Shown in pieces: positions 1 through 29,320 of a stretch of 64,000 nucleotides of DNA. The first letter of the stretch is position 1, and each line of letters starts with the position of its first letter. The position numbers and the translations under genes are program-made. Source of the DNA: an uncultured Bacteroidales bacterium (GTDB lineage: Bacteria; Bacteroidota; Bacteroidia; Bacteroidales; B18-G4); contig CAZASJ010000007.1 of the NCBI GenBank assembly GCA_964487735.1, positions 8,446 through 72,445 of the forward strand, read 5' to 3'. The notes under the pieces were generated by a model. It did no database searches, was not told the DNA's origin, and was given only the letters and a program-made list of their open reading frames with translations.

Positions 1-755
1 AGTCCGGTAGATAATGCATAATAGTCCATTGTGCAATCACCTTGATAAATACCAAGTTCGTTATTATCAGTAAATAAAATATCACCACTTGAGTTTATTC
101 TATTTATCTGATTGTATGATCCTGTTTCCCAGATTATTGTTTCTCCTTTGCTTGCACTTCTATCGCTTGACCCACTAATAAGATACTTCCCGTCGGGACT
201 ATATTTTACCCACGTCCAAGTCGTATTGTGTCCACCTAATGTGTCAATGAAAACTGAATTTTCAATATCCCAGATTCGTACTAACTGATCTGCTGAAGCA
301 ACTGCTAAAAATTTTCCATTTGGGCTGAATGAAAGAGAGTATATTGAATTGGGTAATTCCATATCAAATTCAGGAATCATCCCTTTAGCGATAACATTGT
401 GTGGTTTGATCTGAACTTGACTGATCTTTTCCCCTGTTTCTACATCCCAGAGAATAAAACTTCTATCCAAAGAACCACTGGCAATAAGTTTATTATCCCT
501 GCTTATTCTGGCACACCACACCTGATCAGTATGCCCCCTGAAAGTTCTTATTTCTGTATAAGTCTTTGCATCCCATATTTTAACCGTATTGTCCCATCCA
601 TGACTTACGATAAATTTCCCATCCGAACTATAGAATGCATTCTGAACTTTGTGCTTATGACCTTTAAGAATTTTGTATGGTTCAATATTCTCAGATTGTC
701 CAAAGATTGTTACACAATCAAAAACGAAGATCAATATTAAAGTAAGATATTTCAT
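1..755 (-). CDS. Secreted WD40-repeat protein (C-terminus lies beyond the window edge)
   Basis: Absent from the ORF track because it is open at base 1. The reverse strand from ATG (755..753) reads MKYLTLILIFVFDCVTIFGQSENIEPYKILKGHKHKVQNAFYSSDGKFIVSHGWDNTVKIWD..FRGHTDQVWCARISRDNKLIASGSLDRSFILWD..SPNGKFLAVASADQLVRIWD..GGHNTTWTWVKYSPDGKYLISGSSDRS with no stop down to base 1. It has a signal-like N-terminus followed by repeated GH..WD units. Confidence 0.85.
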   Translation of the reverse strand, partial: MKYLTLILIFVFDCVTIFGQSENIEPYKILKGHKHKVQNAFYSSDGKFIVSHGWDNTVKIWDAKTYTEIRTFRGHTDQVWCARISRDNKLIASGSLDRSFILWDVETGEKISQVQIKPHNVIAKGMIPEFDMELPNSIYSLSFSPNGKFLAVASADQLVRIWDIENSVFIDTLGGHNTTWTWVKYSPDGKYLISGSSDRSASKGETIIWETGSYNQINRINSSGDILFTDNNELGIYQGDCTMDYYALSTG

Positions 756-1825: not shown

Positions 1826-4546
1826 TTAGTATACGTACATTTTTTGAGAGGAGGCTTCAGTATCTGAAACCAGCCGAACCAGATAAATTCCGCTTTTGAG
1901 CATACTTATATTCACCGTAGGATTGTAGCTGTTAATATTTTCCTTTATCTGAACCACTCCTGTAATGCCTATTATTTCTATTCTATCGATTAAAAAATCA
2001 GCCTCTATGTGGATCCTCTCATTTGCGGGATTTGGTGAGATACTGAATGTTTTTTGACTTGCATTTGGTGGACCTTCCGGTATATCTACTGAAAGATCCC
2101 CAAAAGTTACAATTTTATCCGGCCCGGGTACAGGAATTACAAAGAGATCATGATTCTCATAGTAATTCATTACTGATGATATCCCAATCATCGGGTAGAT
2201 TTCATCTTCATAAATCAGCTTCGTTGCTGTTAGTACAGCGGGATTTCCGGCATCATCAATTTTGATGTTGAACTGGAATTTTTCACCAGTTTCGAAAGTC
2301 TCAACAATTTCACCGGTTTCCGGATCAACTGCATGGTACTGATATAGACTTTGCAATGCATAAAACAATCCATCAACAGGGTTATATGCAGCAGACAGAC
2401 ATTGGTGGTTCACAGGAAAAGAAGCATTAATAAAAGAATTCTCTCCATCAATGTAAACAATTGGAAGAGAATAGGTGTAACACAGGGGAAGTGCCCATTG
2501 GGAATCATCGGAAAAGGCAAACCCAAAAATTGCGTCAGCCTCTGTTGGTAAAGAAGCAACAGTTTCCATTTGCTCGACATCCACTATACCAATAAAATAA
2601 TCGTCATATTCATCCCTTTCTAAATAAAAAAAGTATTTCCCATCAGGGCTAATATCTGCGGCTCCATAAATTACAACACCTGTATTTAAATTCCAGAAAC
2701 GTGCCCATTGTACATTCAGTGGAATTTTATCTACGATACTGCTGGCAGCGCCATCAAGCTTGATTTTGCTTAGATGACCCTCTGTTACGCCCCATGGATA
2801 ATAATCTAACAGATAAGCCCACTGACCATCCTTTGATACTTTCAAGGCATGAACATTAACATTACCAATATCAAGGGCTGCAATATATTTGTACGTATTC
2901 AAATCAAGGATCCGAATTGTGTCATGATAATCAGCCCATATAATTGCCTGGTTTTTATCAGGTATTATTTCAAATCCTGAAATACTTTTGTGGTATATTA
3001 ATGTGTCGGTCAGTCCGGTTTCAACATCCACCACACTTATGTTATGTGAAAGCCTATTACAGCTTATCAATTTCTTTCCATCATCGATCAGGTATGCCAT
3101 ATTCGTCTCGTCTGCTTCATAAGCATTTCCGGCATAAAATGAAGTATCAACGATGTAAGTGGCAGGATGGCTGATATCTATTGCATGCAATTCTTCCCCA
3201 AAGTGTTCAAATGTTGTATGCTCGCTCACACAATCGCTCAGAAACATTTTATTTCCTGAGGGGGAAATCGCCCCGGTCCATCCAACTTCAATATCGTCCG
3301 TTGATGTTTCCACCAATTGCCCGGTATTCATATCAATAATATCAAAATAGCCCAGGGTTAATACAACTGCATAATCAAGATCTTCAATTTTCATTACCGT
3401 ATTAGAGAATTTCATGTGGGCGGCAGGAATCGTATTATACTGATAGGTATTAAAATCAAAAAAGTAATACTCGGGAATAATCCAATCACCTGTGGCTAAC
3501 ATCTTCGAAGCATCAGAACTAACACATAAGTCGGCAAAATCCCCAACATAGAGGGTTGATGCAACAATTGAATCCATAATCGTCAGGCTTGTCATATTAA
3601 TCCTACAAGCTTTATATAAATCATTGGGATGCTCTATAAAAGCACAAAATAAAGTATCACCAGAATTTGAAAATCCTGCCCCCAGAAAGTAACCGGAGTT
3701 AAATGTTTGCAGCAAATCTCCATTCAGGGCGCTATATATACCGGAGGTATTATACCCACCACCATTTGCCGCCATAATTTTATCACCTGCAGGGCTTAAA
3801 TAAAATTTCATGAATTTAAACCCTACCCTACCATTGGCCCCAGTTCTTCCCAGCATAAAGATCTTCGGACCGGATGTTTCGAAAATTTGTGTTTCGGTTT
3901 CTAAATCATAAGCTGCAATTGCGCCTTTATCGTCATCAGTTAAACCCACGTATACGATACTATTGTCGGAATTGAGTTCAATCTGGCAGGGACTTTTTTC
4001 CAGTTTAATGGTAGAAGAAACCGAAAAAGTATTTAAATCAACTATCTGAATTTCTTTAGAATAATAACAACAAACATAAATAAAGTCGTCAGTAACTTTC
4101 ATATCCATGGGTCCCCGCCCGAGATCTATGATATGTTCAATCTCAAAATTATCCGCATTGTAAAGAAACAGATTATCGCTATGTTTGTGTAACACTGCAA
4201 TAGATTCACCATCAGCTGTATACGATATTCTTTGAACGAAATCCCCGTTGGGTGACGGTGAAGGATCGAAATTGGTCATCATATCTGAAAAATCTGAAGG
4301 GGTACTGATTCCCTGAGTAGATTCTTCATATAAATTGGCATCAATAATAAGTTTGCCTTCATCTGTATCGATGGTATAAATACCATCCTCTGAGACCTCA
4401 TCCAGGAAATAATTTTGAGCTGCTCCCTCGTCAAACAACCTCACGATAACAGGATTGCCTGAATCATCAAATAATACCTGACGATACTGGGAGAATACGT
4501 GTAGATTTACTGAAAGTAATAACGCAACAAAGAATAGTTTTTTCAT
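1826..4546 (-). CDS. Large secreted beta-propeller-like repeat protein with T9SS C-terminal sorting domain
   Basis: Signal peptide MKKLFFVALLLSVNLHVFSQ and a long repeat-rich body. The last ~75 aa (ISPNPANERIHIEADF..KSGIYLVRLVSDTEASSQKMYVY) fit the Por/T9SS CTD pattern. Confidence 0.75.
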   Translation of the reverse strand: MKKLFFVALLLSVNLHVFSQYRQVLFDDSGNPVIVRLFDEGAAQNYFLDEVSEDGIYTIDTDEGKLIIDANLYEESTQGISTPSDFSDMMTNFDPSPSPNGDFVQRISYTADGESIAVLHKHSDNLFLYNADNFEIEHIIDLGRGPMDMKVTDDFIYVCCYYSKEIQIVDLNTFSVSSTIKLEKSPCQIELNSDNSIVYVGLTDDDKGAIAAYDLETETQIFETSGPKIFMLGRTGANGRVGFKFMKFYLSPAGDKIMAANGGGYNTSGIYSALNGDLLQTFNSGYFLGAGFSNSGDTLFCAFIEHPNDLYKACRINMTSLTIMDSIVASTLYVGDFADLCVSSDASKMLATGDWIIPEYYFFDFNTYQYNTIPAAHMKFSNTVMKIEDLDYAVVLTLGYFDIIDMNTGQLVETSTDDIEVGWTGAISPSGNKMFLSDCVSEHTTFEHFGEELHAIDISHPATYIVDTSFYAGNAYEADETNMAYLIDDGKKLISCNRLSHNISVVDVETGLTDTLIYHKSISGFEIIPDKNQAIIWADYHDTIRILDLNTYKYIAALDIGNVNVHALKVSKDGQWAYLLDYYPWGVTEGHLSKIKLDGAASSIVDKIPLNVQWARFWNLNTGVVIYGAADISPDGKYFFYLERDEYDDYFIGIVDVEQMETVASLPTEADAIFGFAFSDDSQWALPLCYTYSLPIVYIDGENSFINASFPVNHQCLSAAYNPVDGLFYALQSLYQYHAVDPETGEIVETFETGEKFQFNIKIDDAGNPAVLTATKLIYEDEIYPMIGISSVMNYYENHDLFVIPVPGPDKIVTFGDLSVDIPEGPPNASQKTFSISPNPANERIHIEADFLIDRIEIIGITGVVQIKENINSYNPTVNISMLKSGIYLVRLVSDTEASSQKMYVY

Positions 4547-16529: not shown

Positions 16530-17423
16530 ATGAACCCTGTCATACTCATATTCATTCTTATAATAATTAGCTTCATATTGTTCTACTGGATTCGCAGATA
16601 TAACATGAGATGGAAATCGCCGAAGGAAGCTTTTCCGGCAGAATGGAAAATGATCTTAGTGCAGGAAGTCTTATTTTATAATTCATTGGCAGAAGACGAG
16701 AAAAAACGATTTGAATATAAAGTTCAGGAATTCCTATTGAATTGCAGAATAACTGGTATAGAAACTACGGTAGATGAGACTGACAAAGTGCTTATCGCGT
16801 CTAGTGCTATTATTCCAATATTTGCATTTGATGATTGGAAGTATTCTAATATTCATGAAGTTTTACTCTACCCGGCAATGTTTAATAAAAACTTTGACAC
16901 AGAAGGCACAGACAGAAATATTCTGGGGATGGTTGGAAATGGTTATATGGAAGGGATCATGACCCTGTCAAAACAAGCACTTAGACATGGATTTAAAAAT
17001 GAAACAGACAAGAAGAATACAGCTATCCATGAGTTTGTACACCTGATAGATAAGACAGATGGAACCATCGATGGTATTCCAACATTATTATTGGAAAAAC
17101 AATATACCATTCCATGGATTGACCTGATCAGTAAAAAAATAGAGGATGTATATGGAGGGAATTCAGACATCAACCCATATGGAGGAAGCAATCGGGCTGA
17201 ATTTTTCGCAGTTGCCAGCGAGTATTTCTTTGAACGTCCAAAATTGCTGAAGAAAAATCATCCTCAATTATACAATCTGATGGAAAAGACCTTTAAACAA
17301 GATATGTCGTTGAGGCCATTAAGAAAAAATAAAGTTAAGATTGGACGCAATAGTCCTTGTCCATGCAAAAGCGGAAAAAAGTTTAAGAATTGTTGCGGAC
17401 GTATACATTATCAGAAATCATGA
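16530..17423 (+). CDS. M90 (MtfA-like) zinc metallopeptidase with N-terminal TM helix and C-terminal SEC-C motif
   Basis: TM segment VILIFILIIISFILFYWI, HExxH in AIHEFVHLID, MtfA-type NRAEFFAVASEYFFERP, and terminal SPCPCKSGKKFKNCCG (SEC-C metal-binding motif). Confidence 0.85.
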   Translation: MNPVILIFILIIISFILFYWIRRYNMRWKSPKEAFPAEWKMILVQEVLFYNSLAEDEKKRFEYKVQEFLLNCRITGIETTVDETDKVLIASSAIIPIFAFDDWKYSNIHEVLLYPAMFNKNFDTEGTDRNILGMVGNGYMEGIMTLSKQALRHGFKNETDKKNTAIHEFVHLIDKTDGTIDGIPTLLLEKQYTIPWIDLISKKIEDVYGGNSDINPYGGSNRAEFFAVASEYFFERPKLLKKNHPQLYNLMEKTFKQDMSLRPLRKNKVKIGRNSPCPCKSGKKFKNCCGRIHYQKS

Positions 17424-17443
17424 TCATGAAAAGTCATGAGATT

Positions 17444-17552
17444 GTTCCCGGGAAACTTCACAATACCGACATGCAACCGGAGCGAGAGGTCCTTCCTCAC
17501 TCCGCTCCTCAGGAATTCCCCCGAGTACTCGGGGGAAGGACGAAGGACCCTC
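17444..17552. other. GC-rich multi-palindrome element (possible terminator, structured RNA or repeat)
   Basis: Perfect 22 nt palindrome TTCCCCCGAGTACTCGGGGGAA (17516..17537) and TTCCCGGGAA palindrome (17445..17454). Further pairings are GGAGCG..CGCTCC and GGTCCTTCC..GGAAGGAC(C). Direct CCTCAGG repeats flank the core. It is clearly more GC-rich than the surroundings. Confidence 0.5.
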
Positions 17553-17686
17553 AGGCTTTTAGCAAAACGCCAATAAGCCAACCCCTCAATGCAATAACAC
17601 TAAAGAATGAAAAAGAAGTCCTTTTTTAAAATCATTCCTAAGATAAAAAACATAAATTTGGCACTTTAATTTCAATAGGGAAGAAG

Positions 17687-18103
17687 ATGCAAAAGCTCAT
17701 ATTTTCTGAAAAAATTTACACTTATCATATCGACTTTGCCGGACACGTTAGTAACATTGTTTACATCCAATGGATGGAAAATTGTCGTATCCGTTTTTTG
17801 GAGGCTATTGGCTTTCCGGTTAGCGATCTTAACGAAGAAGAAGGCATAATACCCGTACTGGTTGAAACAAATATCATCTACAAAACCCCCTTCTATATGG
17901 GAAATGAAGTGCATATTGAGATGTGGGTTTCGAAAATGAACAATGCATCTGCCATTATGGAATTCCGTTTTTTCAATGAGAAAAAAGAACTATGTGCACG
18001 TGCCTGGCAGAAAGGATTGTTTATTGAGCGCAAATCAAAACGTCCCAAGCGAATAAGTCCGGAACACAAAACAGGATTTGAAAAATATTTTATTGAAGGA
18101 TAA
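17687..18103 (+). CDS. 4HBT/YbgC-like acyl-CoA thioesterase
   Basis: 138 aa hotdog-size protein. The N-terminal block YTYHIDFAGHVSNIVYIQWME is typical of the 4HBT thioesterase family. Confidence 0.8.
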   Translation: MQKLIFSEKIYTYHIDFAGHVSNIVYIQWMENCRIRFLEAIGFPVSDLNEEEGIIPVLVETNIIYKTPFYMGNEVHIEMWVSKMNNASAIMEFRFFNEKKELCARAWQKGLFIERKSKRPKRISPEHKTGFEKYFIEG

Positions 18104-18410
18104 ATTTTATCTGCATTAACATCATTTGATTCTCTATAAGAATCCATCTTATTTCGAGAAATTTCAATTCCGTCAATTTCTAATAACTATATCAAAAAAG
18201 CGAATCTAACAACTGAAATTGACCTCTAACACTCAAGTATAGTGGCCAGGCAAATGGAACACTCTTACCGCTTCATAAATATGCAATAAAAGGGGGGTAA
18301 TAGTAGCGGTATTTGCAGTTTGTACGGTTAGAATACCGTATTATTTCGTACCTTTATCGCAAGCCCTGATATGGGATCTTTTATTTCCTGATAGATTCAT
18401 AACAAAAAAT

Positions 18411-21323
18411 ATGAAGAAGCAATTATTTCGTTTTCTGTTCATTCTACTGATATGCTCCACATTTTCAATCACAAATACTAAAGCACAAAAGATCAGCAAT
18501 GAGGAAATCAGCCTGCGTATTGCATCATACAAGGCCGATGTGCGTGGCCCGTACAAGGACATCCGGTGGTTTTGTCCTGATGGATCATTCAAATCGCCAC
18601 AGGAAAGGTGTACTGAGCCAGGAGGGGTGCAGCGTGCCAGGTATAAGGACGAAATTATCAGTCTTGCCAATTCCAATCATGTTTTTCTTGGGCAAATATT
18701 ATCAACCACACCTTATGCCGACTTCTGGGATGAAAGCAATAATTATTCAAGAATAAAGCAATTCCAGATCGAAAAATACCTGATCGGGGTGGATAAGGGC
18801 TGGATCCTCAGGAAGGCTCAGTATTACCGTGGTGCTTTCCAGGCTGAAGATGAGGAACTCTGGGGCCTTGGCTTTTTCAACTGGCTGCTTGCCGATGATG
18901 CGGCTATTCAAACACAGTTCTTTCTGATCCGACAGGCATGCAAAGACATTCCTCACAATAATGATGATAATACCAAACAAAAAATCCGCCTAAACTCTAA
19001 GCTTATTTCCGATTCCTATCCACCTTTTCTTGATATCAGGGTAAAGATACATGGCCAGCCGGATAAATCTGATATTCAAAAAACAAAGGATTTCAGGCGA
19101 AGCCATCAGGAAAAAATGGCTGCTCCCGACCTGAAAATGATGGATGATCTGATCACAGATCTTGAGAAGCAGTACAAAGCATTTGATATTCAATCATTGG
19201 ACCGTTTAATTATGAAGCTGCCCGGCGGATCAAGCCTGAGGGAAACACTTCTCCATTTTCAAAGCAACTTCAAATCTTCAAAGAATGGGTTTGAAAGGAT
19301 CCAATTATTATCGGAGATCCTTGAAAAACTCAGAGCATCCATATTATCTGTCAAAACTTCAAGTGCAAGACTGGCTGTTATGGACATTTCCATCATTCTG
19401 GAAGACCTTCTGTTCAGGGAAGCCGGAGAATATAAGCCGGCAACCATAAAAGAATCCCTGCTGTACATCAACCAACTCGGACGGGCATCTGCCGGATGCG
19501 GATATCTCGAAGTGTGGGAATGGAAACATTTACAGAAATTCCTTTACGACGGCTCATATGACAAGATGAAGCAAGCCGAATTTATGAAGCTGTTTGAATC
19601 ATGCAGAAATATTGTGGAATGGGGCAGCAGTATGTTTATGGCTGTATATGAGGATGATATAAAACTATACAGTGGCTTTGAGCCCAAAACAGAAGGCTTT
19701 CTTGACGATAAGATTCGATCTTCTATACTGCTTCAGGTGGGAATTCAGGTAAGCTCCCTTGGCGACATTATGGCCCGCTACCTCCCTGCCGGCAATAGAA
19801 TTCTGGATATTGCAGGGCAGACATCCGCACGAGGGCTTAATCCGGGCTTTGCCAAAGGTGAACTGGTAGTGGTTCAAGGGTCAATTGATGGCCTTGTTGT
19901 GGAGAAAGACAAGATCTATATATTCAATAAGCCTCCCTCCGACCTCAAGCCTGTTGCCGGCATTATGACCGTAAGCGAAGGCAATCCGGTATCGCATGTA
20001 CAATTGCTTGCCAGGAACCTTGGCATTCCAAATGCCGTGATCTCAATGCAAAACCTTGATGAGCTTAAAAAATATTCAGGGCAGCATGTGTTTTACGCTG
20101 TTTCGTCGAAGGGTGTGATCGTTATGAAAAGAGAAAAGGATATGAATGAGGAGGAGGCCAAACTCTTTACAAAGAAAGAAAGGAGTGAAAATAAGATCAG
20201 CGTTCCGGTAGAAAAGATACGTTTGGATAATATGCGTGTTTTAAACCTCCGCGAAGTAGATGCTTTTTCATCGGGTATAGTGTGCGGACCAAAAGCTGCC
20301 AATCTTGGTCAATTAAAAAAGTTGTTCCCCGACAATGTAGTTGAGGGGCTCGTCATACCATTTGGCATTTTCATGCAGCATATGCAAATAGCCATGCCCG
20401 GACAACAAATGACATACTGGGAATACCTACAGAATATATTTGAGCAATCACGGATGATGAGACTATCGGGCGTGCCGGAAGCGGAAATAGAATCTTTTGA
20501 ATTGGGAGAGCTTGGCATATTCAGGGAAGCCATTGGCCGGATCAGCCTTTCAAAAGAGCTGATTGCCGAGCTTAATCAATTGTTTGTAGCGGTTTTTGGG
20601 AAGAAAATGGGTGAGATCCCGGTTTTCCTGAGAAGCGATACAAATATGGAAGACCTGAAAGATTTTACCGGTGCAGGACTCAACCTTACCCTCTTTAATG
20701 TGGTTTCTGCTGATGCCATTTTAAAAGGCATTCGTGATGTATGGGCATCGCCATACACCGAAAGAAGCTATAAATGGCGGCAGCGATATCTTTTAAACCC
20801 CGAAAATGTATTCCCTTCCATACTAATCATCCCCTCAGTAAATGTGGATTATTCAGGAGTACTGATAACAAAAGGCATTTCCTCAGGCTTGATGGAAGAT
20901 GCCACTGCAGCTTTTAGCAGGGGAGCAGGGGGTGCTGTCGACGGACAAGCTGCAGAGACCTACCTGCTTAAAAAAGCAGGCAAGGATATTTTATTGTTAC
21001 CGGCAAGAGAACCAAGTTATATATCATTACCTGCTTCAGGCGGCGTAAAAAAAGAATTTACTTCATTTGAGAGGGGAGTATTGAATGATCAGAACATTGC
21101 TTCGCTAAGAGAGATTGGGAGGGAAATACGAAACCGCTTGCCCGGCTTTGGCAGCAAGGGCCCTTTTGATATAGAGCTTGGATTTAAGGACAACAAACTC
21201 TGGCTCTTCCAGGTCAGGCCCTTCGTTGAAAATAAGAATGCCATTGGGCAGATTTACCTGGAATCATTGAATCCGATACTTAATGATAAAATGATTATTG
21301 AATTAATACACACCATACAATGA
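18411..21323 (+). CDS. Exported His-swivel / PPDK_N ATP-grasp 'dikinase-like' phosphotransferase with unassigned ~440-aa N-terminal domain
   Basis: Signal peptide MKKQLFRFLFILLICSTFSITNTKAQ. PEP-utilizer mobile-domain motif KPVAGIMTVSEGNPVSHVQLLARNLGIPNAV (His codon at 19995..19997). The C-terminal PPDK_N-type blocks are GPKAANLGQLKKLFP, PVFLRSDTNMEDL, VWASPYTERSYKWR and LWLFQVRPF. No TIM-barrel PEP/pyruvate domain is present. Confidence 0.8.
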   Translation: MKKQLFRFLFILLICSTFSITNTKAQKISNEEISLRIASYKADVRGPYKDIRWFCPDGSFKSPQERCTEPGGVQRARYKDEIISLANSNHVFLGQILSTTPYADFWDESNNYSRIKQFQIEKYLIGVDKGWILRKAQYYRGAFQAEDEELWGLGFFNWLLADDAAIQTQFFLIRQACKDIPHNNDDNTKQKIRLNSKLISDSYPPFLDIRVKIHGQPDKSDIQKTKDFRRSHQEKMAAPDLKMMDDLITDLEKQYKAFDIQSLDRLIMKLPGGSSLRETLLHFQSNFKSSKNGFERIQLLSEILEKLRASILSVKTSSARLAVMDISIILEDLLFREAGEYKPATIKESLLYINQLGRASAGCGYLEVWEWKHLQKFLYDGSYDKMKQAEFMKLFESCRNIVEWGSSMFMAVYEDDIKLYSGFEPKTEGFLDDKIRSSILLQVGIQVSSLGDIMARYLPAGNRILDIAGQTSARGLNPGFAKGELVVVQGSIDGLVVEKDKIYIFNKPPSDLKPVAGIMTVSEGNPVSHVQLLARNLGIPNAVISMQNLDELKKYSGQHVFYAVSSKGVIVMKREKDMNEEEAKLFTKKERSENKISVPVEKIRLDNMRVLNLREVDAFSSGIVCGPKAANLGQLKKLFPDNVVEGLVIPFGIFMQHMQIAMPGQQMTYWEYLQNIFEQSRMMRLSGVPEAEIESFELGELGIFREAIGRISLSKELIAELNQLFVAVFGKKMGEIPVFLRSDTNMEDLKDFTGAGLNLTLFNVVSADAILKGIRDVWASPYTERSYKWRQRYLLNPENVFPSILIIPSVNVDYSGVLITKGISSGLMEDATAAFSRGAGGAVDGQAAETYLLKKAGKDILLLPAREPSYISLPASGGVKKEFTSFERGVLNDQNIASLREIGREIRNRLPGFGSKGPFDIELGFKDNKLWLFQVRPFVENKNAIGQIYLESLNPILNDKMIIELIHTIQ

Positions 21324-22582
21324 TAAAAAGAAGCCTGCGCATATTGATCTTATACATTGCTTTTCCTCTTTACGCGATGACATATCCCATTGATGGTTAT
21401 CAAACAACAGGAATCAAGCGATTGCTTTACCTGCAGCTTGTTGAGGCAGGCGAAATAACAGGAACCCTGCCCAAGGAGGGTGCCCGGCTGGGCCTCAGCG
21501 AAATCAGACTGAACCTGACAGGCCCAAAAGGCGACAGCCTGACTGAAATGCCTGATATTGACAAGAAATTGCAAGCATCCGTAGATGCTTTATTTCCCAA
21601 CATTCATGAAAGTTATTCGCTTTCCATTCTTGATATTACTCCCGGCCGGCCAATCAGATATGCAAAACGCAAAGACAAACAAGGTTTTCAACCCGGCAGT
21701 ATCGCTAAGCTGATTGTGGTGGCCGGCCTCTTCAATGAATTAAAAAACCTTTATCCCGATTCATTTGAAGAGAGACAGCAGCTCCTGAGAGATAAGAAAG
21801 TTGTTGGCGGAAAATGGGTCATCACTGATGAACACACAGTTCCGATATTTGATATTGAGACCAAAACCCTGAAATCAAGGGTTGTCAGGGAAGATGACGT
21901 CTTCAGTTTGTATGAATGGGTTGATTATATGCTATCGGCCAGCAACAACAGTGCTGCCAGTGTAGTGTGGCGGGAAACGATCCTTATTCATGTGTTTGGG
22001 AAAGCATATCCTTATCTTACTGCGGAGCAGACAAATGAATATTTTTCTGGCGTTTCACAAGCACAAATGATGCAATTGGCAGTAGATCTTGTCAATGCAC
22101 CCATCAGGGATGTAGGCATAACAGAAGATGAAGCGCGTTTGGGAAGCTTCTTCACACGGGAAGCCAAGAGGATTATTCCGGGCAAGGGCGGAAGCATCGG
22201 CACTCCTGCCGGATTTATGAAATATCTCGTGGCCATGGAAAGAGGCCTCCTTGTTGATGAACAATCAAGCCTTGAGATCAAGCGTTTGATGTACATGACT
22301 GCCCGACGCATCAGGTACGCCTCATCTGAAGCGCTCAATACTGCAGCAGTATACTTTAAGTCAGGAAGCCTTTATCAATGCGTTGCGGAAGAAGGGTACA
22401 GCTGTGCTAAATATATGGGTAACAAAAGCAATTTCATGAATTCCGTGATCATTGTTGAACACAAAGACGGAACCAAATACATGGTCGTATTGATGTCGAA
22501 CGTACTTAAAAAAAATTCAGCGGCTGATCACAATGGCCTGGCAACACAGATCGACAGAACAATAAGAAAACCCTGGAAATAA
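21320..22582 (+). CDS. Exported class-A-fold (SxxK) serine hydrolase, beta-lactamase/DD-peptidase-like
   Basis: ATGA start/stop overlap with the upstream gene and a hydrophobic N-terminus LRILILYIAFPLYA. Motifs are SxxK in PGSIAKL (Ser codon at 21698..21700), SxN in SASNNS and KSG in FKSGSL. Confidence 0.7.
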   Translation: MIKRSLRILILYIAFPLYAMTYPIDGYQTTGIKRLLYLQLVEAGEITGTLPKEGARLGLSEIRLNLTGPKGDSLTEMPDIDKKLQASVDALFPNIHESYSLSILDITPGRPIRYAKRKDKQGFQPGSIAKLIVVAGLFNELKNLYPDSFEERQQLLRDKKVVGGKWVITDEHTVPIFDIETKTLKSRVVREDDVFSLYEWVDYMLSASNNSAASVVWRETILIHVFGKAYPYLTAEQTNEYFSGVSQAQMMQLAVDLVNAPIRDVGITEDEARLGSFFTREAKRIIPGKGGSIGTPAGFMKYLVAMERGLLVDEQSSLEIKRLMYMTARRIRYASSEALNTAAVYFKSGSLYQCVAEEGYSCAKYMGNKSNFMNSVIIVEHKDGTKYMVVLMSNVLKKNSAADHNGLATQIDRTIRKPWK

Positions 22583-22585
22583 GTA

Positions 22586-25441
22586 TCAGGAAATTTCTTT
22601 TCTGTTTTGGAGCACTTCTATAGTCCTGTTGGCAGAGAGCGCAATTTTGCTGTTCGGGTGATTCACATACTTGCCCACGACTGGAAGAAATTTTTTATCG
22701 TTCAATACTGATATAAGATTCAGGACTGCAAGCTTAACCGTAACATCCCTTCCTTCAAGCAGTGTACTGAAACACTCAGCCTGACCGATATCTTTGATCT
22801 TTAATTCATTTATTCCGTCCTTAGTAACTGATTCCTCCACAGATGTTTCAATAATGGGAATAAGGATCCTTTTCAGGTTGATCTCAAGTAGGTTATCAAG
22901 AAACTCAATGGCGCTGATCCTCAACTCTGATTTTTCACTTTTAAGGCCCTGATATGCGATATCAATTTCGTCCTGGGGATATTTAAGTCCCAGAAATTTA
23001 AAAATTCGGTCCAGGTTATCATCAAGCCTTCCTTCTAAAAGCTTGATCAGTCCAAGCCTTGTTTCAAAAACAATGTTCTCATCTGTTTTTCCTGAACGTG
23101 GCTTTACAATCCTATTTTGTTGCACATAAAGTGCTGTAAGGATATTCTGAAATAATTTTGCCTCATCAAAGATATTGTTAATGATTTGTTTTTTATTGAA
23201 AACCAGGTAAGGGCTTTGTCCTTTTATCACCGTCAGGCTGCGCACTGCTTCGCTTCTTACTATGATATCATCAAAATCGAGCAATTCAAACATAAAATCT
23301 ACACCAGCCTGGGTACCTATCCTTTCAACTACGGATGGGATGGCCCTGACGAAATCAGTGTTTGCCTTGTTTAGAATAACTTCTTCTTTCAGGAGGGTAA
23401 TGATTTTAAATCCATAATTTGCAAGGGCAGCCGACGCATCTGCACTAAATTCTTTACGCAATAGAAACTGATAAAGTACTGGTATAAATAATTCATCAAG
23501 GCTTATTCCGGCAGATTGGATGCCAGCCCTGATCAACTCCGCACTCTGCCCATTCAGGGCTTCCAGTATAAAAGGATAATATTCATCAAGGTGTGCACTG
23601 CCAATGGCTTTAAGAACATTTTTCTTTTTAAACAATCCTTCTTCCGTGTTTCCGCTCGTTTTCATCTCCGCAATTGATGCGCCAATGATAGCAGAAAGCT
23701 TAAATATCTGTTTCAGTTCGGGATTATCCCTGGTTTCATTTGCAATGGCAAGCAATGTTGCATACTTAATATGATAATCTCGATCAAGAAGAAATCGATT
23801 GATCACACTTTTTCTCTCATATGCAGAGTGTTCTATAATGTATTCTATTGCAGAAATCCGAACAGCCAAAGATTTATGGTGTGTAAAAGGGAGTATCTCA
23901 TCCGAAAGGTTCCGGGATCGATAAAAATAAAGCCTGCTTATTGCTTCCTTTATGACCTCCTCTGATGGGTGATGAAGCAACTTTTTGATTGGAATAAATA
24001 GCATTTCATGTTGAAAATCATCTGTATTCCGGAGTGCCAATAAAATTTGATTTTTAGTGCCATTTTCAAGGACCTTTGCCAAACCACCATAAACGGATTC
24101 TTTGTTCAGGTCGGGCATATTCTTCGATTCTTTCGATTGTTCTTTGTTCAGGTTCAGTTTCAATTTGAACAATTTGACGTATTCAAGGCGTACCCTGGAG
24201 GCATAAAAAAACCAGAGCAGGGTAAGCAAAATAATAACAAGGCTAATCACCTCCACCGGCAACTTAAAGGCAATAACCAGGGTGATCAGGATCAGCCCGC
24301 TCATCCCTGTAGCAAAGCTATCGACAAAAACATCAATAAAAGTCTTTGCCTGGTTCTTTGTTTCAATGGGAATAGGCAGGGCCAGTAATTCGATGGCAGA
24401 TTTATTAACTGACTGCTTCAGGCTTCCATCAGCGGACTTTATCAGGATAGCCGACCACAGGGCCGGAAAGAACATTACAGATAAGGCACCTATAAATATT
24501 CCGGCGGGAAGAAAGAACAATGACATGCCCACCCCAAAGGTTCCGACCACCCTTCGCGTAAGAAATAACTGGATGAGCAAGGAAATGATATTGATGTTTG
24601 AGAACCAAAACCCAAAGAAAGCGGTCAGTTCATCCTCATCGGTTATAAGCAGGGATGAGATGGCCGAAAACTGATAGTCGACCAGTCTTGCAACGAACAC
24701 ACCGATTGCTGTAATCAGGGCCAGGTAAGTCAGGTGTTTGGACTTCACAATAAGCCGGAGGGGGTGTTCTGATACCCTGCCCATCCTCTTCCTCCTTTTA
24801 TAGAGAGAAGTTGCAGTACTTTTATTGCTGTTCCATATCATCCTGATCAGAAAAATACAGACCACCAGAAAAAAAGCACCAATAAACAAAAGGTTTTCAC
24901 TCCCGATATACGGAGCAAGGATGGAGGTAAGATACCCTCCAAAGATGCCCCCGGCAATAGCAGCTCCCCCGATGAGGTTAAACAAGCGTTTCGCTTCGCG
25001 TGTGTTGAAAATAATGTTTGCCAGGATCCAGAACTGCGAGGTAGCCAAAACAGCAAATATCGCAACCCAAACATAAAAAACGTATAAGATCCATACATCT
25101 ATGATATTCATCTTTAGCAAAACCGTGAAAAGAAGGATGCATATCACAGAGATTAGCAAGGTATAGTGGATAATCCGGTTAAGAGGGATCTTATTGAGCA
25201 GCCTCGAATAAAATGTTGTAAGGATTCCTGCAAAAACAGCAACCAGAATAAATGCTATCGGAAGGTTTTCAATACCGGCATTTATAAGAAATAAGGAATT
25301 GATACTAGGCTTAATGATGAGAAGGGTTGATATAAGCAAAAAGATGGAAAGTTGCATCAGGAAGGTCCTTCTCAGTTCACCTTCCCGAATATCAAACGTC
25401 CTGTAAAAAAAATCTTTCGCCTTATCAACAGAGATCATCAA
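22586..25441 (-). CDS. TLC/Npt-family nucleotide-carrier-like membrane domain fused to a C-terminal HEAT-repeat domain
   Basis: About 11-12 hydrophobic segments in the first ~430 aa, with the TLC-type signature SQFWILANIIFNTREAKRLFNLIGGAAIAGGIFGG. The C-terminal ~500 aa have HEAT-like units (SLAVRISAIEYII, DIIVRSEAVRSLTVI, SELRISAIEFLDNLL, DVTVKLAVLNLISVL, NSKIALSANRTIEVL). Confidence 0.75.
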   Translation of the reverse strand: MMISVDKAKDFFYRTFDIREGELRRTFLMQLSIFLLISTLLIIKPSINSLFLINAGIENLPIAFILVAVFAGILTTFYSRLLNKIPLNRIIHYTLLISVICILLFTVLLKMNIIDVWILYVFYVWVAIFAVLATSQFWILANIIFNTREAKRLFNLIGGAAIAGGIFGGYLTSILAPYIGSENLLFIGAFFLVVCIFLIRMIWNSNKSTATSLYKRRKRMGRVSEHPLRLIVKSKHLTYLALITAIGVFVARLVDYQFSAISSLLITDEDELTAFFGFWFSNINIISLLIQLFLTRRVVGTFGVGMSLFFLPAGIFIGALSVMFFPALWSAILIKSADGSLKQSVNKSAIELLALPIPIETKNQAKTFIDVFVDSFATGMSGLILITLVIAFKLPVEVISLVIILLTLLWFFYASRVRLEYVKLFKLKLNLNKEQSKESKNMPDLNKESVYGGLAKVLENGTKNQILLALRNTDDFQHEMLFIPIKKLLHHPSEEVIKEAISRLYFYRSRNLSDEILPFTHHKSLAVRISAIEYIIEHSAYERKSVINRFLLDRDYHIKYATLLAIANETRDNPELKQIFKLSAIIGASIAEMKTSGNTEEGLFKKKNVLKAIGSAHLDEYYPFILEALNGQSAELIRAGIQSAGISLDELFIPVLYQFLLRKEFSADASAALANYGFKIITLLKEEVILNKANTDFVRAIPSVVERIGTQAGVDFMFELLDFDDIIVRSEAVRSLTVIKGQSPYLVFNKKQIINNIFDEAKLFQNILTALYVQQNRIVKPRSGKTDENIVFETRLGLIKLLEGRLDDNLDRIFKFLGLKYPQDEIDIAYQGLKSEKSELRISAIEFLDNLLEINLKRILIPIIETSVEESVTKDGINELKIKDIGQAECFSTLLEGRDVTVKLAVLNLISVLNDKKFLPVVGKYVNHPNSKIALSANRTIEVLQNRKEIS

Positions 25442-25468
25442 AGCAAATTTTTTATTTAATTGCGATTG

Positions 25469-26401
25469 TTACAAATCCGAACTCATCATCTTGTCAACAA
25501 TCGTAGCCAGTTCACGGAGGATATTCTCTCCATCGGCATCATCGAGCAAAGCTACAAGAATATATTTTCTGTGCGGCCCCCATACCAGTATGGAGTCTGA
25601 ATGAAATGTTTTCCACGAACCTGATTTCCTGAAAAGACGTGCTTGTGGTGCCGCTTTACTGAGTACACTCACAAATTTGTGATTGATTCCGGGGTTGTCC
25701 ATATATTGCATCATCTGTTTTGATCGCTCATAGTTGACCAACTTACCATAGGTCATAAGGTAATAGTATCTGCAGATTTGCGTTACCGTTCCCCCATGGC
25801 TTAATCCTTTCAAAGGATCCGGATGCCTCTCGCCGGTCTTGGCATATCTTTTCCCAACCCATAAACCACCACCATAATCTTCATCGTAAAGTTCATAGGC
25901 CGGATCCTCTAAAACGCTTTCTATTTTATCAAAACCAATAAGATCAATGAGTGCGGTAGCTGATGTATTGCTTGATACACTGATCATTTTACGCATGTTT
26001 TCCTGCAATTCAGGTGTTTCTTCTATTTCCCCCTTTTCGAGGGCATCCATTACAGCCAATAAAATGGCAATCTTTGGCAAACTGGCTGCATACATCATTA
26101 CATTTCCGTTCACACGGGCATATTTGACATCAAAAGGATCCGAAAGATCAACAATACCCACGGCCATTCTCTTCTGACTGATAAGCCTTTTCCACTTTGG
26201 TTTCAAATAAACATTTGCTTCCAGTTTTTTTTGGAAATCTTCATCAATAAGATTTCGTAGAGACATGAGCGAATCCTTCCCAAGATTAATGGGCAATTCA
26301 GGCACCTTTTCTCCGGCAATACTATCTTGCCCCTCCTGGGCATATTGTTGACAAGAAAACTGAAACATGATCAACAAAATCATCCAAATTCTTTTTTTCA
26401 T
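25469..26401 (-). CDS. Exported class-A-fold (SxxK) serine hydrolase, paralog-type of 21320..22582
   Basis: Signal/lipoprotein-like MKKRIWMILLIMFQFSC. Motifs are SxxK in AASLPKI, SxN in SVSSNTS and KSG in RKSGSW. Confidence 0.7.
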   Translation of the reverse strand: MKKRIWMILLIMFQFSCQQYAQEGQDSIAGEKVPELPINLGKDSLMSLRNLIDEDFQKKLEANVYLKPKWKRLISQKRMAVGIVDLSDPFDVKYARVNGNVMMYAASLPKIAILLAVMDALEKGEIEETPELQENMRKMISVSSNTSATALIDLIGFDKIESVLEDPAYELYDEDYGGGLWVGKRYAKTGERHPDPLKGLSHGGTVTQICRYYYLMTYGKLVNYERSKQMMQYMDNPGINHKFVSVLSKAAPQARLFRKSGSWKTFHSDSILVWGPHRKYILVALLDDADGENILRELATIVDKMMSSDL

Positions 26402-26770
26402 TGGTATTTCATTAATATTAGTACGTTATATCATACATCAAGACGAGCTAAACGTAAATTGTTACACCAACAATATACTTTAGTAAAATAAATTTTTGAA
26501 ATGATAAGTCGGCCCAATCCTTTTAACTCAAACGTGTCAGGCCTGATCATAACACACCTTTTTCAGGGGCATTAAGTTTGCGGGGGTATGATCAGGTATT
26601 CTCAAAATTAATAAATTAATTCACACCAATATTTTTAAACCTATACACCCCTCATCTTTACGTTAAGATTCAGGATTTAACTTCTAACAAAAGCGAAGCT
26701 TCTGCCCAGTCTGTCTTCAATTAGAAAAACCCAAAAACAGGCTGATGAGATTTTCACTACCTTTACAAAA

Positions 26771-27616
26771 ATGCTGCTTAATATTCATACTAAATATAAA
26801 AAAGAAACAATGAAAGCAATTACATCAAGACTGTTATTTATCTTAATTTTATTGATAGCTATTCCATTCAGCGGAATGGCCCAAAAAAGGCTTAATAAGA
26901 TTATCACTACCGGAGAGATCAAGGTAGGGATGTCCGGAGTACAACCGCCCTTTTCTATGCACAGTAACTCCGACAGCCTGATGGGTTATGAGGTTGATCT
27001 GGCTCAAATGATCGCAGAGTCCATGGGGGTAAAGCTGACAATTGTGGAAATCCCATTTGCAGACCTGCTGAAAGCGCTTGAAGATGGCAAAGTCGATGTC
27101 GTAATGTCCGGGATCACCATCACCCCAAAACGAAACCTGAAATCGATGTTTGTAGGGCCCTACATCGTTTCCGGGAAATCCATTTTGACAAGGTCAGAAA
27201 AACTGGCAGGCATTAACGAGCTCGGAGAACTTAATAATCCAAATGTAATACTGGCTGCTCTGGCAGGTTCGACCAGTGAAGAATTTGTTAGAAAAAACAT
27301 TCCATTAGCACAATTGAAGGTAACAAAGACCCATGATGAAGCAGTGAAAATGGTGATAAATAAACAAATCGATGCTTTATTCGCCGATTATCCTGTTTGT
27401 GTTTATGCCATGTTCCGCTACCCACTCATTGACCTTTCAATATTGGATCAGCCCCTGACCATAGAACCCATAGGCATTGCTTTGCCCGCTGATGGTTTTT
27501 TATTGCATAATCTCCTGCAAAACTATTTAAACTCCCTCCAGATCATTGGTGTCCTTGATGCCCTTGAATATAAATGGTTTGAATCTGGTGAATGGCTTGA
27601 CAAAGTGAAGATGTAA
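26771..27616 (+). CDS. Periplasmic solute-binding protein, family 3 (amino-acid/polar solute type)
   Basis: The likely start is MKAITSRLLFILILLIAIPFSGMAQ at 26810. SBP_bac_3-type blocks are GEIKVGMSGVQPPFS, GYEVDLAQMIAESMGVKL and VDVVMSGITITPKR. Confidence 0.8.
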   Translation: MLLNIHTKYKKETMKAITSRLLFILILLIAIPFSGMAQKRLNKIITTGEIKVGMSGVQPPFSMHSNSDSLMGYEVDLAQMIAESMGVKLTIVEIPFADLLKALEDGKVDVVMSGITITPKRNLKSMFVGPYIVSGKSILTRSEKLAGINELGELNNPNVILAALAGSTSEEFVRKNIPLAQLKVTKTHDEAVKMVINKQIDALFADYPVCVYAMFRYPLIDLSILDQPLTIEPIGIALPADGFLLHNLLQNYLNSLQIIGVLDALEYKWFESGEWLDKVKM

Positions 27617-27848: not shown

Positions 27849-28436
27849 GTGAAAATCTCTTTGATGAAACACACCATTATGATTAAAAAAATATTAATTC
27901 TAAGCATTTTTCTTTCTTTCTCCCTATGTATCTTGAGTCAGAATGCAACAAATTACAGGCAAGTCATTGAATCCACAAGTGTTCCCAATAAAGTGAAAGC
28001 TGCGTTTAACACCATGTATCCGGGGGCTTTTATAAAAATGTGGTATGTAACCAACATCGCTTATTGGTATCAGGATTATGGCCCATCTTATTATAATGGA
28101 TGGTACCAACCCCGAACAGTGGTGGTTTATAATTTCAGCGAACCTGCAAACTATGAAGTTGAATTTCTATATAATAATGAAAACAGCAGGGCTATTTTCA
28201 ACCGTTATGGAGTCTGGTTTGAAACCAGGACCAAGGTTGTCGCACTGCCTGATCAAATTGAAGCAGCAATAGACAATTCTGATTTCAGTAGCTGGAGAAG
28301 GTCGGATCACAAAGAACGCATTGAAGCTCCTGGCATGGCCGGCTCTGTCTACAGAATGCAGGTTTCACAAAAGCATCTTTCACAAATTATACGAATAGAT
28401 GACAATGGCAAAATTGTGCAAATTAAGTCCGAATAG
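27849..28436 (+). CDS. Secreted PepSY-like domain protein
   Basis: The likely start is MIKKILILSIF at 27879. VPNKVKAAFNTMYPGAFI and LPDQIEAAIDNS.. resemble tandem PepSY-like (putative beta-lactamase-inhibitor-like) units (recall-based). Confidence 0.5.
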   Translation: MKISLMKHTIMIKKILILSIFLSFSLCILSQNATNYRQVIESTSVPNKVKAAFNTMYPGAFIKMWYVTNIAYWYQDYGPSYYNGWYQPRTVVVYNFSEPANYEVEFLYNNENSRAIFNRYGVWFETRTKVVALPDQIEAAIDNSDFSSWRRSDHKERIEAPGMAGSVYRMQVSQKHLSQIIRIDDNGKIVQIKSE

Positions 28437-28474: not shown

Positions 28475-29320
28475 ATGAATGAAACGAGAAAAATCCAGGT
28501 GCTGAAAAGCAATGGAGAAAGACAAGCCTTCGACAGAAATAAGTTGATCATGGCGCTTAAAAGATCAGGGGCCAGCCAGGAAAACCGTCAAAAAGCAGTT
28601 GAATTTGTTGAATCGAAACTTTTTGACGGAATTCCGACCAAGCAGATATATACGCTTGCTTTTGCAGCTTTGAAGAAGAAATCAACACGAATGGCAGGCC
28701 GCTACAAGCTAAAATCAGCCATTCTTCAATTTGGTCCTACGGGCTATCCTTTTGAAATATTTGTTGGTCGGTTATTTGAAACATTGGGTTACACAGTAGA
28801 AATTGGCGTTTTTATGCAAGGTGAATGTGTGCAACACGAGATAGATGTTCTTGCAAAGAAAGAAGGTAAAATTGTTGTTATTGAATGTAAATTTCACCAC
28901 GATCAAAGAGCAAAAACAAGCGTTCAGGTACCTTTGTACATTCATTCCCGGTTCCAGGACATTGAAGCATTGTGGAGGATGGAGCATCCCGGTGTGGATG
29001 TTAAATTTGAGGGATTCGTTGTTACCAACACACGCTTTTCAGAAGATGCCATGAACTATGCAAAATGTGCCGGCCTGGGTATGATCTCCTGGGATTATCC
29101 CCCAAATAAATGCCTTAGGTCATATGTAGATAACTCGGGTTTGCATCCTCTGACATCCCTTCTTTCTCTCAGAAAAGCAGAGCAACGATTCCTCCTGGAA
29201 AAAGGCTTGGTCTTGAGCAGTGAACTCGAAACCAACCAACATTTACTGCATGAAATGAACATCAGCGAAAAGCGGATTGGCAAAATATTAAAGGAAGCTA
29301 AAACCCTTATTGAGAAATAA
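28475..29320 (+). CDS. ATP-cone domain fused to Mrr-like PD-(D/E)xK restriction-endonuclease-fold domain
   Basis: N-terminal ATP-cone pattern IQVLKSNGERQAFDRNKLIMALKRSG. Nuclease core FEIFVGRLFETLGY..HEIDVLAKKEGKIVVIECKFH..GFVVTNTRFSEDAMNYA, plus a helix-hairpin-helix-like tail. Confidence 0.7.
   Translation: MNETRKIQVLKSNGERQAFDRNKLIMALKRSGASQENRQKAVEFVESKLFDGIPTKQIYTLAFAALKKKSTRMAGRYKLKSAILQFGPTGYPFEIFVGRLFETLGYTVEIGVFMQGECVQHEIDVLAKKEGKIVVIECKFHHDQRAKTSVQVPLYIHSRFQDIEALWRMEHPGVDVKFEGFVVTNTRFSEDAMNYAKCAGLGMISWDYPPNKCLRSYVDNSGLHPLTSLLSLRKAEQRFLLEKGLVLSSELETNQHLLHEMNISEKRIGKILKEAKTLIEK

Follow-up and report, generated by a model that had tools for sequence, protein, structure and literature searches.

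The locus and the dikinase gene

The DNA analysed (the window) was a stretch of 64,000 nucleotides from an uncultured Bacteroidales bacterium (GenBank assembly GCA_964487735.1, contig CAZASJ010000007.1, positions 8,446 to 72,445 of the forward strand), in whose own numbering all coordinates are given. It contains a gene for a large, predictedly exported protein, referred to here as the dikinase, together with genes for two putative serine enzymes and a putative nucleotide transporter that recur beside it in distantly related bacteria. The dikinase gene and its parts were delimited as follows.

18411..21323 (+): dikinase gene, an uninterrupted open reading frame (ORF) whose translation has 970 amino acids (aa)
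18411..18485 (+): signal peptide, residues 1-25, with a predicted signal peptidase I cut between TKA and Q and Gln26 as the new N-terminus
18486..19820 (+): N-terminal putative acceptor domain, residues 26-470, a beta-hairpin with Cys55 and Cys67 followed by ~20 helices
19821..20210 (+): phosphohistidine swivel domain and linker, residues 471-600, with His529 (19995..19997) in the motif GNPVSHVQLLARNLGIPN
20211..21245 (+): PPDK_N-type ATP-grasp nucleotide-binding domain, residues 601-945 (PF01326)

An initial annotation, made from the letters of the window, had placed a PPDK_N ATP-grasp domain in the C-terminal half of the protein and, ahead of it, a phosphoenolpyruvate (PEP)-utilizer mobile domain with a phosphohistidine. 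All peptides that it quoted were present in the translation, and the codon at 19995..19997 was read as 'cat', encoding His529. The ATP-grasp domain was recovered in Pfam by a match of PF01326 (PPDK_N) to residues 704-945 (E 1e-21, 78 bits, cut-off 27), and the NCBIfam models for PpsA, rifampicin phosphotransferase (RPH) and PigC aligned their own N-terminal ~330 positions to residues ~609-940, with scores near one tenth of their cut-offs. PF00391 (PEP-utilizers) matched residues 512-552 of the dikinase with a sub-threshold score (E 0.008, 16.2 bits, gathering score 23.1). The mobile domain was borne out at the level of the family: in an alignment of 46 diverse members, which included a ~30%-identical subfamily, PF00391 matched 45/46 sequences (best E 1.5e-6) and PF01326 all 46. 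The related model PF22973 (GWD1_pHisD) was matched faintly by 7/46 members, and a precomputed PF00391 annotation is already attached to many of the proteobacterial members. No Pfam match to PEP-utilizers_C, the TIM barrel of PEP-utilising enzymes, was obtained in the dikinase or the 46 family members, as the initial annotation had said of the window protein. By its sequence, the protein is thus assigned to the PEP-utilising dikinase superfamily, which combines a PPDK_N ATP-grasp domain with a phosphohistidine swivel domain.

When the dikinase was compared with sequences in the Protein Data Bank (PDB) by phmmer, PpsA (8a8e) was aligned in two blocks, its ATP-grasp domain (116-363) with dikinase residues 705-942 and its His domain (384-472) with residues 474-561, the catalytic SH being in register. 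Judged from these sequences, the order in the dikinase is His domain, then ATP-grasp domain, the reverse of that in PpsA, PPDK and RPH. A full-length AlphaFold2 model built from a 53-sequence alignment (predicted local distance difference test score, pLDDT, 84.4; predicted template-modelling score 0.81) was matched by Foldseek to RPH (5hv1, E 3e-14), HpeI (9goj, E 1.4e-11), PpsA and PPDK, the top matches covering the ~340 columns of the ATP-grasp domain.

More than 1000 homologues were found at E <= 0.001. The 120 listed were mostly full length (~965 aa), 53-60% identical to the dikinase and derived from Bacteroidota and Balneolota; in the databases they are named 'PEP/pyruvate-binding domain-containing protein' or, wrongly, 'phosphoenolpyruvate synthase'. 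The named members of the ~30%-identical subfamily are Proteobacteria (Sulfuriflexus, Guyparkeria, Thiobacillus, Mariprofundus, Nevskiales, Syntrophobacterales and Myxococcales). Residues S528-H529, K628, R741-S742-D743, E747-D748, E922, Q934, R936 and P937 were invariant in the 46-sequence alignment, and His529, whose conservation had been proposed as a check on the initial annotation, was unchanged together with its surrounding motif down to 29% identity. From the alignments to PpsA, this set is read as the catalytic His and the nucleotide/Mg site of the ATP-grasp domain; since these residues are invariant, the dikinase looks catalytically competent.

Predicted export of the dikinase

The N-terminus of the dikinase, MKKQLFRFLFILLICSTFSITNTKA followed by Gln, has the n-h-c layout of a signal peptide that the initial annotation had described. 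A signal-peptide-like segment was present in essentially all 120 close homologues and, by a simple hydrophobicity cut-off, in 69/81 full-length sequences representing the wider family, GC-rich proteobacterial members among them; some of the others appear to be N-terminally truncated. Loss of the signal peptide in homologues, in which the initial annotation would have seen a sign of a wrongly chosen start, was looked for, and the peptide was found to be conserved, which argues that the start codon is not mis-called. Gln26 was conserved in at least 90% of homologues, and 119/120 had [ASGTP]Q 8-26 residues ahead of a RGPY..IRWFC.DG motif. In the Bacteroidota members, a Gln at the predicted cleavage site fits the 'Q-rule' for Bacteroidetes substrates of signal peptidase I (PMC5837995, PMC10653852). 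The Cys pair pointed out in the N-terminal region, Cys55 and Cys67, was invariant in close homologues and conserved in at least 90% of the wider family, the pattern expected of a disulfide bond that forms outside the cytoplasm.

The Pfam scan of the dikinase reported no Por_Secre_tail, the C-terminal domain of type IX secretion (T9SS) substrates, so that the periplasm is its likely destination. Secretion by the T9SS was considered and rejected on the same scan, though the window protein encoded at 1826..4546 (-) has such a domain. The dikinase sequence contains no twin-arginine motif; the protein would therefore cross the membrane unfolded and be unable to carry a bound nucleotide along.

An ordinary cytoplasmic enzyme of the PpsA/PEP-synthase type, with a mis-called start or a hydrophobic N-terminus arising by chance, is what the database name 'phosphoenolpyruvate synthase' of some records would imply, and the dikinase does share with PpsA and PPDK homologous ATP-grasp and His domains, conserved ATP/Mg ligands and the SH motif. 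PpsA and PPDK, however, start with the ATP-grasp domain and end with a PEP/pyruvate TIM barrel, whereas the dikinase has no barrel, a permuted order and predicted export, with the signal peptide, the Q-rule Gln and the Cys pair conserved family-wide. The NCBIfam PpsA models scored 66-86 bits against cut-offs of 598-883, about a tenth of what membership among PEP synthases takes, and all soluble partners encoded beside the dikinase (see below) are predicted to be exported as well. The sequence evidence already contradicts a cytoplasmic PEP synthase, which we regard as extremely improbable.

The N-terminal putative acceptor domain

Residues ~27..470 had matched nothing recognisable in the initial annotation, and database searches gave the same picture. 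No Pfam or NCBIfam model matched residues 27-470, the domain profile had 0 matches among PDB sequences at E <= 10, and Foldseek found no fold match in the PDB (best E 0.049, template-modelling score 0.12) for an AlphaFold2 model of residues 27-475 (pLDDT 84.8), in which a short beta-hairpin with Cys55 and Cys67 is followed by ~20 helices. When the profile was run against 1.84 billion representative proteins, 626 clusters were retrieved; among the clusters listed, almost all showed the same ~970-aa architecture or were fragments of it, the domain beginning 20-60 residues from the N-terminus. The region is thus best described as a family-specific domain, apparently new for dikinases with a swivelling histidine, with a putative role in binding the acceptor. 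Its invariant polar residues are Q74, Y139, R140, Q144, E148, R193, H214 and R308, and R210, K212 and D221 are nearly invariant. A search of 17400..27000 for riboswitches or other RNA clues to a ligand returned no Rfam family at E <= 1.

Comparison with glucan,water dikinases and other swivelling-histidine enzymes

The initial annotation had likened the domain order to that of plant alpha-glucan,water dikinases (GWD) and had proposed an enzyme of the X,water-dikinase type with an unfamiliar N-terminal domain. Potato GWD1 (StGWD1) is composed, in this order, of two CBM45 modules, a 20-helix all-alpha central domain (aa 483-926) that lacks an equivalent in the PDB, a His domain and an ATP-binding domain (PMC13553574). 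Real GWD1 sequences were retrieved with a bait that matched Arabidopsis GWD1 at 100%, and the profiles of the dikinase family and of GWD were compared by hhalign with shuffled controls. One collinear alignment was obtained, in keeping with the proposed domain order, in which positions 436-945 of the query were joined to positions 429-920 of the GWD template over 444 columns (probability 98.6%, E 7e-16); it begins at the final helix of the acceptor domain, takes in the His domain and runs to the C-terminal edge of the ATP domain. Taken alone, the His domain scored 26.1 against GWD (E 9e-4; shuffles 12.3 +/- 2.3, ~6 standard deviations) and the ATP domain aligned with that of GWD at E 1.6e-15.

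The N-terminal domain gave a different result. Its score against the GWD central domain (19.9, E 0.12) lay within the shuffle null (17-18.5 +/- 2.6, maximum 26), PF23229 (GWD central domain) matched none of the 46 family members, and 9HA9, a structure of the GWD central domain, did not appear in Foldseek or PDB-sequence searches with the N-terminal domain, whose size and helical content are similar to those of the GWD domain. No match to PF23166 or any carbohydrate-binding module (CBM) was found in the dikinase or the 46 family members, and where GWD has starch-binding modules the dikinase has a signal peptide followed by the Cys-hairpin. A second hhalign match under the -alt option (probability 70%, E 4e-5), which paired KIHGQP..D with KLHNNTSPDD and could have been taken for homology to the central domain, was rejected as an artefact: the same values (69.93 / 4.1e-05 / 51.58) were returned whatever was aligned, block-shuffled templates included, so that its statistics are untrustworthy.

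The dikinase is thus like GWD1/SEX1 (EC 2.7.9.4) and phosphoglucan,water dikinase (PWD) in having a ~440-aa all-alpha putative acceptor domain, a His domain and an ATP domain in this order and no TIM barrel. Unlike GWD and PWD it has no CBM45 or CBM20; unlike plastidial GWD it is a bacterial protein with a signal peptide and a predicted periplasmic location; and unlike GWD it is linked to a transporter of the NTT family and to enzymes resembling penicillin-binding proteins (PBPs). Of the X,water-dikinase proposal, the part that stood was the architecture and the His/ATP module, and the part that did not was any likeness in substrate recognition, there being no CBM and an acceptor domain unlike that of GWD. 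The term 'GWD-like' accordingly appears to suit the architecture and the His/ATP module of the dikinase and not its substrate, which, with acceptor domains that are not detectably related, cannot be deduced from GWD.

A displaced motif was noticed within the ATP-grasp domain. The dikinase carries RSDTNxEDL..GAGLN at a PpsA-like position, while the look-alike in GWD, RSDSNGEDLEGYAGAGLY, is found near the C-terminus. Residues 738-763 of the dikinase (20622..20699) read VFLRSDTNMEDLKDFTGAGLNLT at the canonical PpsA position, preceding VWASP; in plant GWD1 (P0397), the near-identical IFRSDSNGEDLEGYAGAGLYDSVP lies close to the C-terminus, following VWASKWNERAY, and gives a separate off-diagonal hhalign match. 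One possible cause of the displacement is a rearrangement inside the ATP-grasp domain of GWD.

RPH, PigC/RedH, phenylphosphate synthase and HpeI resemble the dikinase in combining a PPDK_N ATP-grasp domain and a swivelling His domain with a helical, non-TIM acceptor domain. RPH is ordered as ATP-grasp domain, rifampicin-binding (acceptor) domain and C-terminal His domain, and only its ATP-grasp domain aligns with the dikinase; RPH is also cytoplasmic, unlike the dikinase with its signal peptide.

A conserved four-gene module

The genes downstream of the dikinase gene comprise the following features.

21320..22582 (+): 420-aa beta-lactamase/PBP-fold serine enzyme with its own signal peptide and a weak PF13354 match
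22586..24151 (-): HEAT-repeat C-terminal domain of a 951-aa transporter, predicted to be cytoplasmic, with HEAT_2 in 21/21 family members
24152..25441 (-): NTT/TLC-type nucleotide-transporter domain of the same protein, residues 1 to ~430, with ~12 transmembrane segments
25469..26401 (-): 310-aa class-A beta-lactamase/PBP-A-like serine enzyme with a signal peptide (PF13354, E 2.7e-16)

For genomic context, 80 loci were fetched around dikinase homologues. The 420-aa gene lay directly downstream of the dikinase gene in 78/80 loci, the convergent 951-aa gene (22586..25441, -) was present in 75/80, and the 310-aa gene, located upstream of the 951-aa gene, in 71/80. All-against-all clustering of the ORFs showed only these four families to be broadly conserved, the next real family being found in 17/80 loci. 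Among the Bacteroidota and Balneolota loci with enough downstream sequence, 66/70 held all four genes, always in the order ++--, with a median span of 8.0 kb and a median gap of 2 nt between the dikinase and 420-aa genes; in the window, the dikinase stop overlaps the start of the 420-aa gene by ATGA. The quartet was also present in 4/4 informative contigs of the distant subfamily, namely Sulfuriflexus mobilis (AP018725.1), Guyparkeria halopsychrophila and two metagenomic contigs, two of the four being named Gammaproteobacteria. Two more contigs of this subfamily were too short to reach the downstream genes, and a fifth (L084) has a 497-aa MFS_1 protein in the place of the transporter. This conservation suggests that the dikinase gene is part of a module formed with the genes for the 420-aa serine enzyme, the NTT/TLC transporter and the 310-aa PBP-A-like enzyme, carried by taxa as different as marine heterotrophs and sulfur- and iron-oxidising chemolithotrophs.

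The upstream neighbours in the window (a thioesterase, an M90 peptidase and an FMN reductase) were found beside the dikinase gene in 0/80 loci and were rejected as functional partners. An anti-phage defence system was also considered and rejected, as PADLOC gave no match for any of the four module proteins. Scans for sigma-70 promoters and terminators found sites no more frequently than in shuffled sequence and are uninformative for Bacteroidota. Literature searches on the module, on periplasmic ATP export and on exported bacterial GWD-like enzymes returned nothing specific, nor any account of a periplasmic ATP-dependent enzyme that has a nucleotide transporter dedicated to it, and the four-gene module appears to be undescribed.

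Two side observations were made among these loci. A short contig binned as 'Anaerolineales bacterium' (L067, JBFGQG010000427.1, 3.6 kb) carries part of a dikinase gene, with 60% identity of its product to the Bacteroidota protein, and is probably mis-binned. In L084 and L089, a gene for an OmpW/OMP_b-brl or OmpA-like outer-membrane beta-barrel protein adjoins the module; such a gene was absent from the Bacteroidota loci, and its position may be a coincidence.

The two serine-enzyme neighbours

In the 420-aa family, S127xxK130, S208xN210, K347SG349 and C354/C362 were invariant across 24 sequences, including those from Proteobacteria, and the search for a solved relative found none. In the 310-aa family, S106xxK109, S142xN144 and K258SG260 were invariant, and the nearest solved relative was PBP-A Tll2115 (2j7v, E 5e-5), a DD-peptidase that has the fold of class-A beta-lactamases. 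Both neighbours thus carry what appear to be the active-site motifs of PBPs and class-A beta-lactamases (SxxK, SxN and K(T/S)G). The 310-aa protein of the window is a probable lipoprotein (...FQFSC).

A kinase resembling RPH beside two proteins with this fold could be read as a periplasmic cluster for the inactivation of antibiotics or other xenobiotics, in which the kinase would phosphorylate a toxic compound and two hydrolases of the beta-lactamase type would act with it. This reading would account for RPH (5hv1, E 3e-14) as the closest solved structure, for the alignment of the NCBIfam RPH model, for one JGI record named 'rifampicin phosphotransferase' and for the intact SxxK/SxN/KSG motifs of partners with the class-A beta-lactamase fold. 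The RPH match is, however, confined to the ATP-grasp domain, the model NF041857 reaching 69 bits against a cut-off of 999, so that the dikinase falls outside the RPH family; the domain order differs, and the acceptor domain has no similarity to the rifampicin-binding domain. The genes are chromosomal with varied flanks, and orthologues 50-60% identical across Bacteroidota families, with a highly conserved acceptor domain, look like housekeeping genes, while the 310-aa protein is closest to a DD-peptidase (PBP-A) and not to a true beta-lactamase. An inactivation cluster is therefore considered decidedly unlikely.

Two genes away from the beta-lactamase-fold gene in the window, a 195-aa protein (27849..28436, +) has a near-threshold match to PepSY_like ('putative beta-lactamase-inhibitor-like', E 4e-6, 27.4 vs 28.3 bits); its gene was conserved with the module in 0/80 loci.

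The transporter neighbour

A family profile restricted to the transmembrane part of the 951-aa protein matched the ADP/ATP carriers 9j3n (E 2e-24) and 9j3j (plastid NTT1, E 7e-23) in the PDB and no other transporter, and the motifs FW.LAN, EAKR and K..IDVV are common to the transporter and the solved ADP/ATP carriers. PF03219 (TLC) matched 14/21 family members (best E 9e-13); the window sequence alone reached only MFS_1 (E 1.4e-5). Orthologues are named 'NTP/NDP exchange transporter' or 'Npt1/Npt2 family nucleotide transporter' by NCBI/PGAP. The C-terminal domain had alphaRep/HEAT matches in the PDB. Profile matches and motifs therefore point to the NTT/TLC family, and nucleotide exchange is predicted as its activity.

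Fusions of NTT and HEAT domains are widespread in free-living bacteria, where they are uncharacterised and their function has been left unexplained (PMC5381601, Major et al. 2017). The 951-aa protein has the same architecture. The module transporters of Proteobacteria differ from these fusions in being plain TLC proteins without HEAT repeats (L085, L086, L089 and L090). Unlike Rickettsia and Chlamydia Npt and plastid NTT1, the module transporters are tied by gene linkage to a predictedly exported ATP-grasp enzyme, which would imply an outward supply of ATP and not energy parasitism.

The linked transporter may alternatively move the small-molecule substrate of the pathway or its phosphorylated product (an organophosphate or nucleotide-like compound) instead of ATP, the module then serving scavenging or uptake with, for example, environmental ATP or other NTPs as the donor. 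NTT members carry varied cargo and import it in all characterised cases (PMC5381601), gene linkage shows a functional connection and not a cargo, and in one distant locus (L084) the partner scored only as MFS_1. Against this, a transporter of substrate or product would leave the module without an ATP source for an enzyme with invariant ATP-grasp catalytic residues, the PDB matches of the transporter profile are confined to ADP/ATP carriers (E 2e-24), and the spread of taxa from marine heterotrophs to chemolithotrophs argues against a nutrient-specific pathway. Transport of substrate or product is thus judged unlikely.

Proposed function of the module

In textbook bacterial physiology the periplasm is held to lack ATP, and periplasmic envelope work is powered indirectly, through ABC transporters of the inner membrane, the proton-motive force via TonB/Tol or pre-activated substrates (D-Ala-D-Ala, lipid-linked donors). 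Export of an ATP-dependent enzyme had accordingly been called unusual in the initial annotation, and the conserved NTT/TLC transporter next to the dikinase gene is a candidate answer to this objection. We propose that the dikinase may be a periplasmic 'X,water dikinase' that is fuelled by ATP exported through the NTT protein and acts, with the two serine enzymes, on a substrate of the cell envelope; the chances that this proposal is correct are, in our estimation, about even.

The dikinase would be exported by the Sec pathway and its signal peptide removed, as its sequence features suggest, after which the C-terminal ATP-grasp domain would bind ATP in the periplasm. By homology to PpsA, GWD and RPH, His529 on the swivel domain would accept the beta-phosphate, with release of AMP and Pi, and the His domain would then swing to the all-alpha N-terminal domain and phosphorylate the acceptor bound there. 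The neighbouring NTT/TLC NTP/NDP exchanger would bring ATP to the periplasm and return the spent nucleotide, as its conserved gene linkage suggests, and the two exported PBP/beta-lactamase-fold enzymes would also act on the dikinase substrate, either ahead of its phosphorylation or afterwards. A more specific version, in which the exchanger exports ATP and retrieves AMP/ADP(+Pi), the dikinase phosphorylates a wall component, possibly converting a carboxylate to an acyl-phosphate, and the PBP-like enzymes capture or process it, is put forward tentatively, with more doubt than confidence. As for the acceptor, an anionic component of the cell envelope such as a peptidoglycan peptide or glycan is weakly hinted at by the PBP-A-like partners and the strongly cationic invariant residues of the acceptor domain, and we regard it as unlikely to be the right candidate.

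Several points weigh against a periplasmic dikinase supplied by the exchanger. The localisation of the dikinase, its use of ATP and the direction of transport are all deduced from sequence, and the PF00391 match of this single dikinase sequence lies below the Pfam threshold. The transporter is missing from the neighbourhood in 2/70 loci and lies several kb off in a few others. ATP released into the periplasm could leak through outer-membrane porins. The acceptor is not pointed to by the Rfam scan (17400..27000) or by additional conserved neighbours in the 80 loci. NAD, SAM and further nucleotides are transported within the NTT family as well, so that the cargo need not be ATP, and every NTT characterised so far brings nucleotides into parasites or plastids, none being known to export ATP (PMC5381601). 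As exchangers, however, NTTs work in the direction that the gradients set.

The classical view of an ATP-free periplasm, and the reversibility of PPDK-type chemistry in PPDK itself, would also be compatible with an exported protein that is not a kinase and serves for binding or sensing, or with a reverse reaction, in which ATP would be formed from AMP and a periplasmic high-energy phosphate and then imported by the NTT protein. The characterised NTTs, being importers (PMC5381601), would suit the latter. Loss of catalysis is nevertheless unlikely with the catalytic His, the Mg/ATP ligands and the P-loop-equivalent Lys invariant across ~29-60% identity, and for the reverse direction the water-dikinase reactions of PpsA and GWD are essentially irreversible, the Pfam scans found no PPi/PEP-type domain and the module includes no evident periplasmic donor. 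A binding protein or a reversed reaction is thus very unlikely.

Lig E, which bears a signal peptide and requires ATP outside the cytoplasm, provides a precedent for an ATP-dependent enzyme targeted to the periplasm (PMC10799422; bioRxiv 10.64898/2026.03.22.713542). Its fold and chemistry are unrelated to those of the dikinase, and no dedicated nucleotide transporter is mentioned in the titles and abstracts retrieved.

The pairing, across phyla, of an exported, ATP-dependent-looking enzyme with a transporter of the ATP/ADP-exchanger family presents a testable exception to the ATP-free periplasm, and the module suggests that some bacteria deliberately feed ATP into this compartment. If the proposal were true, the module would be the first to supply the bacterial periplasm with ATP by a dedicated line, and it would allow ATP to power modification of the envelope beyond the cytoplasmic membrane. 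It would also give the NTT(-HEAT) proteins of free-living bacteria, noted in 2017 to be unexplained (PMC5381601), a function for the first time, and, were the substrate related to peptidoglycan, it would bear on cell-wall biology and on inhibitors of the beta-lactam type. The family assignment corrects the annotation of hundreds of proteins now named 'PEP synthase' or 'rifampicin phosphotransferase'.

Other genes in the window

Upstream of the dikinase gene, a 297-aa M90 (MtfA-like) metallopeptidase (16530..17423, +; PF06167, E 1e-64) carries a C-terminal SEC-C zinc-binding motif (PF02810, E 1e-7); its gene was conserved with the dikinase gene in 0/80 loci. A 281-aa protein encoded at 28475..29320 (+) combines an N-terminal ATP-cone (E 4e-7) with an Mrr_cat domain of the restriction-endonuclease type (E 2.5e-6) and looks like a nucleotide-sensing nuclease; being present in only 4/80 loci, its gene lies outside the module. 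The protein with a Por_Secre_tail (1826..4546, -) has 906 aa and fits a Bacteroidota origin. A 506-aa ORF with a TTG start (53109..54629, +) had no Pfam match at E <= 1e-5, and the gene at 43376..46186 (-) encodes a 936-aa protein in which an N-terminal adenylate/guanylate cyclase domain is followed by TPR repeats.

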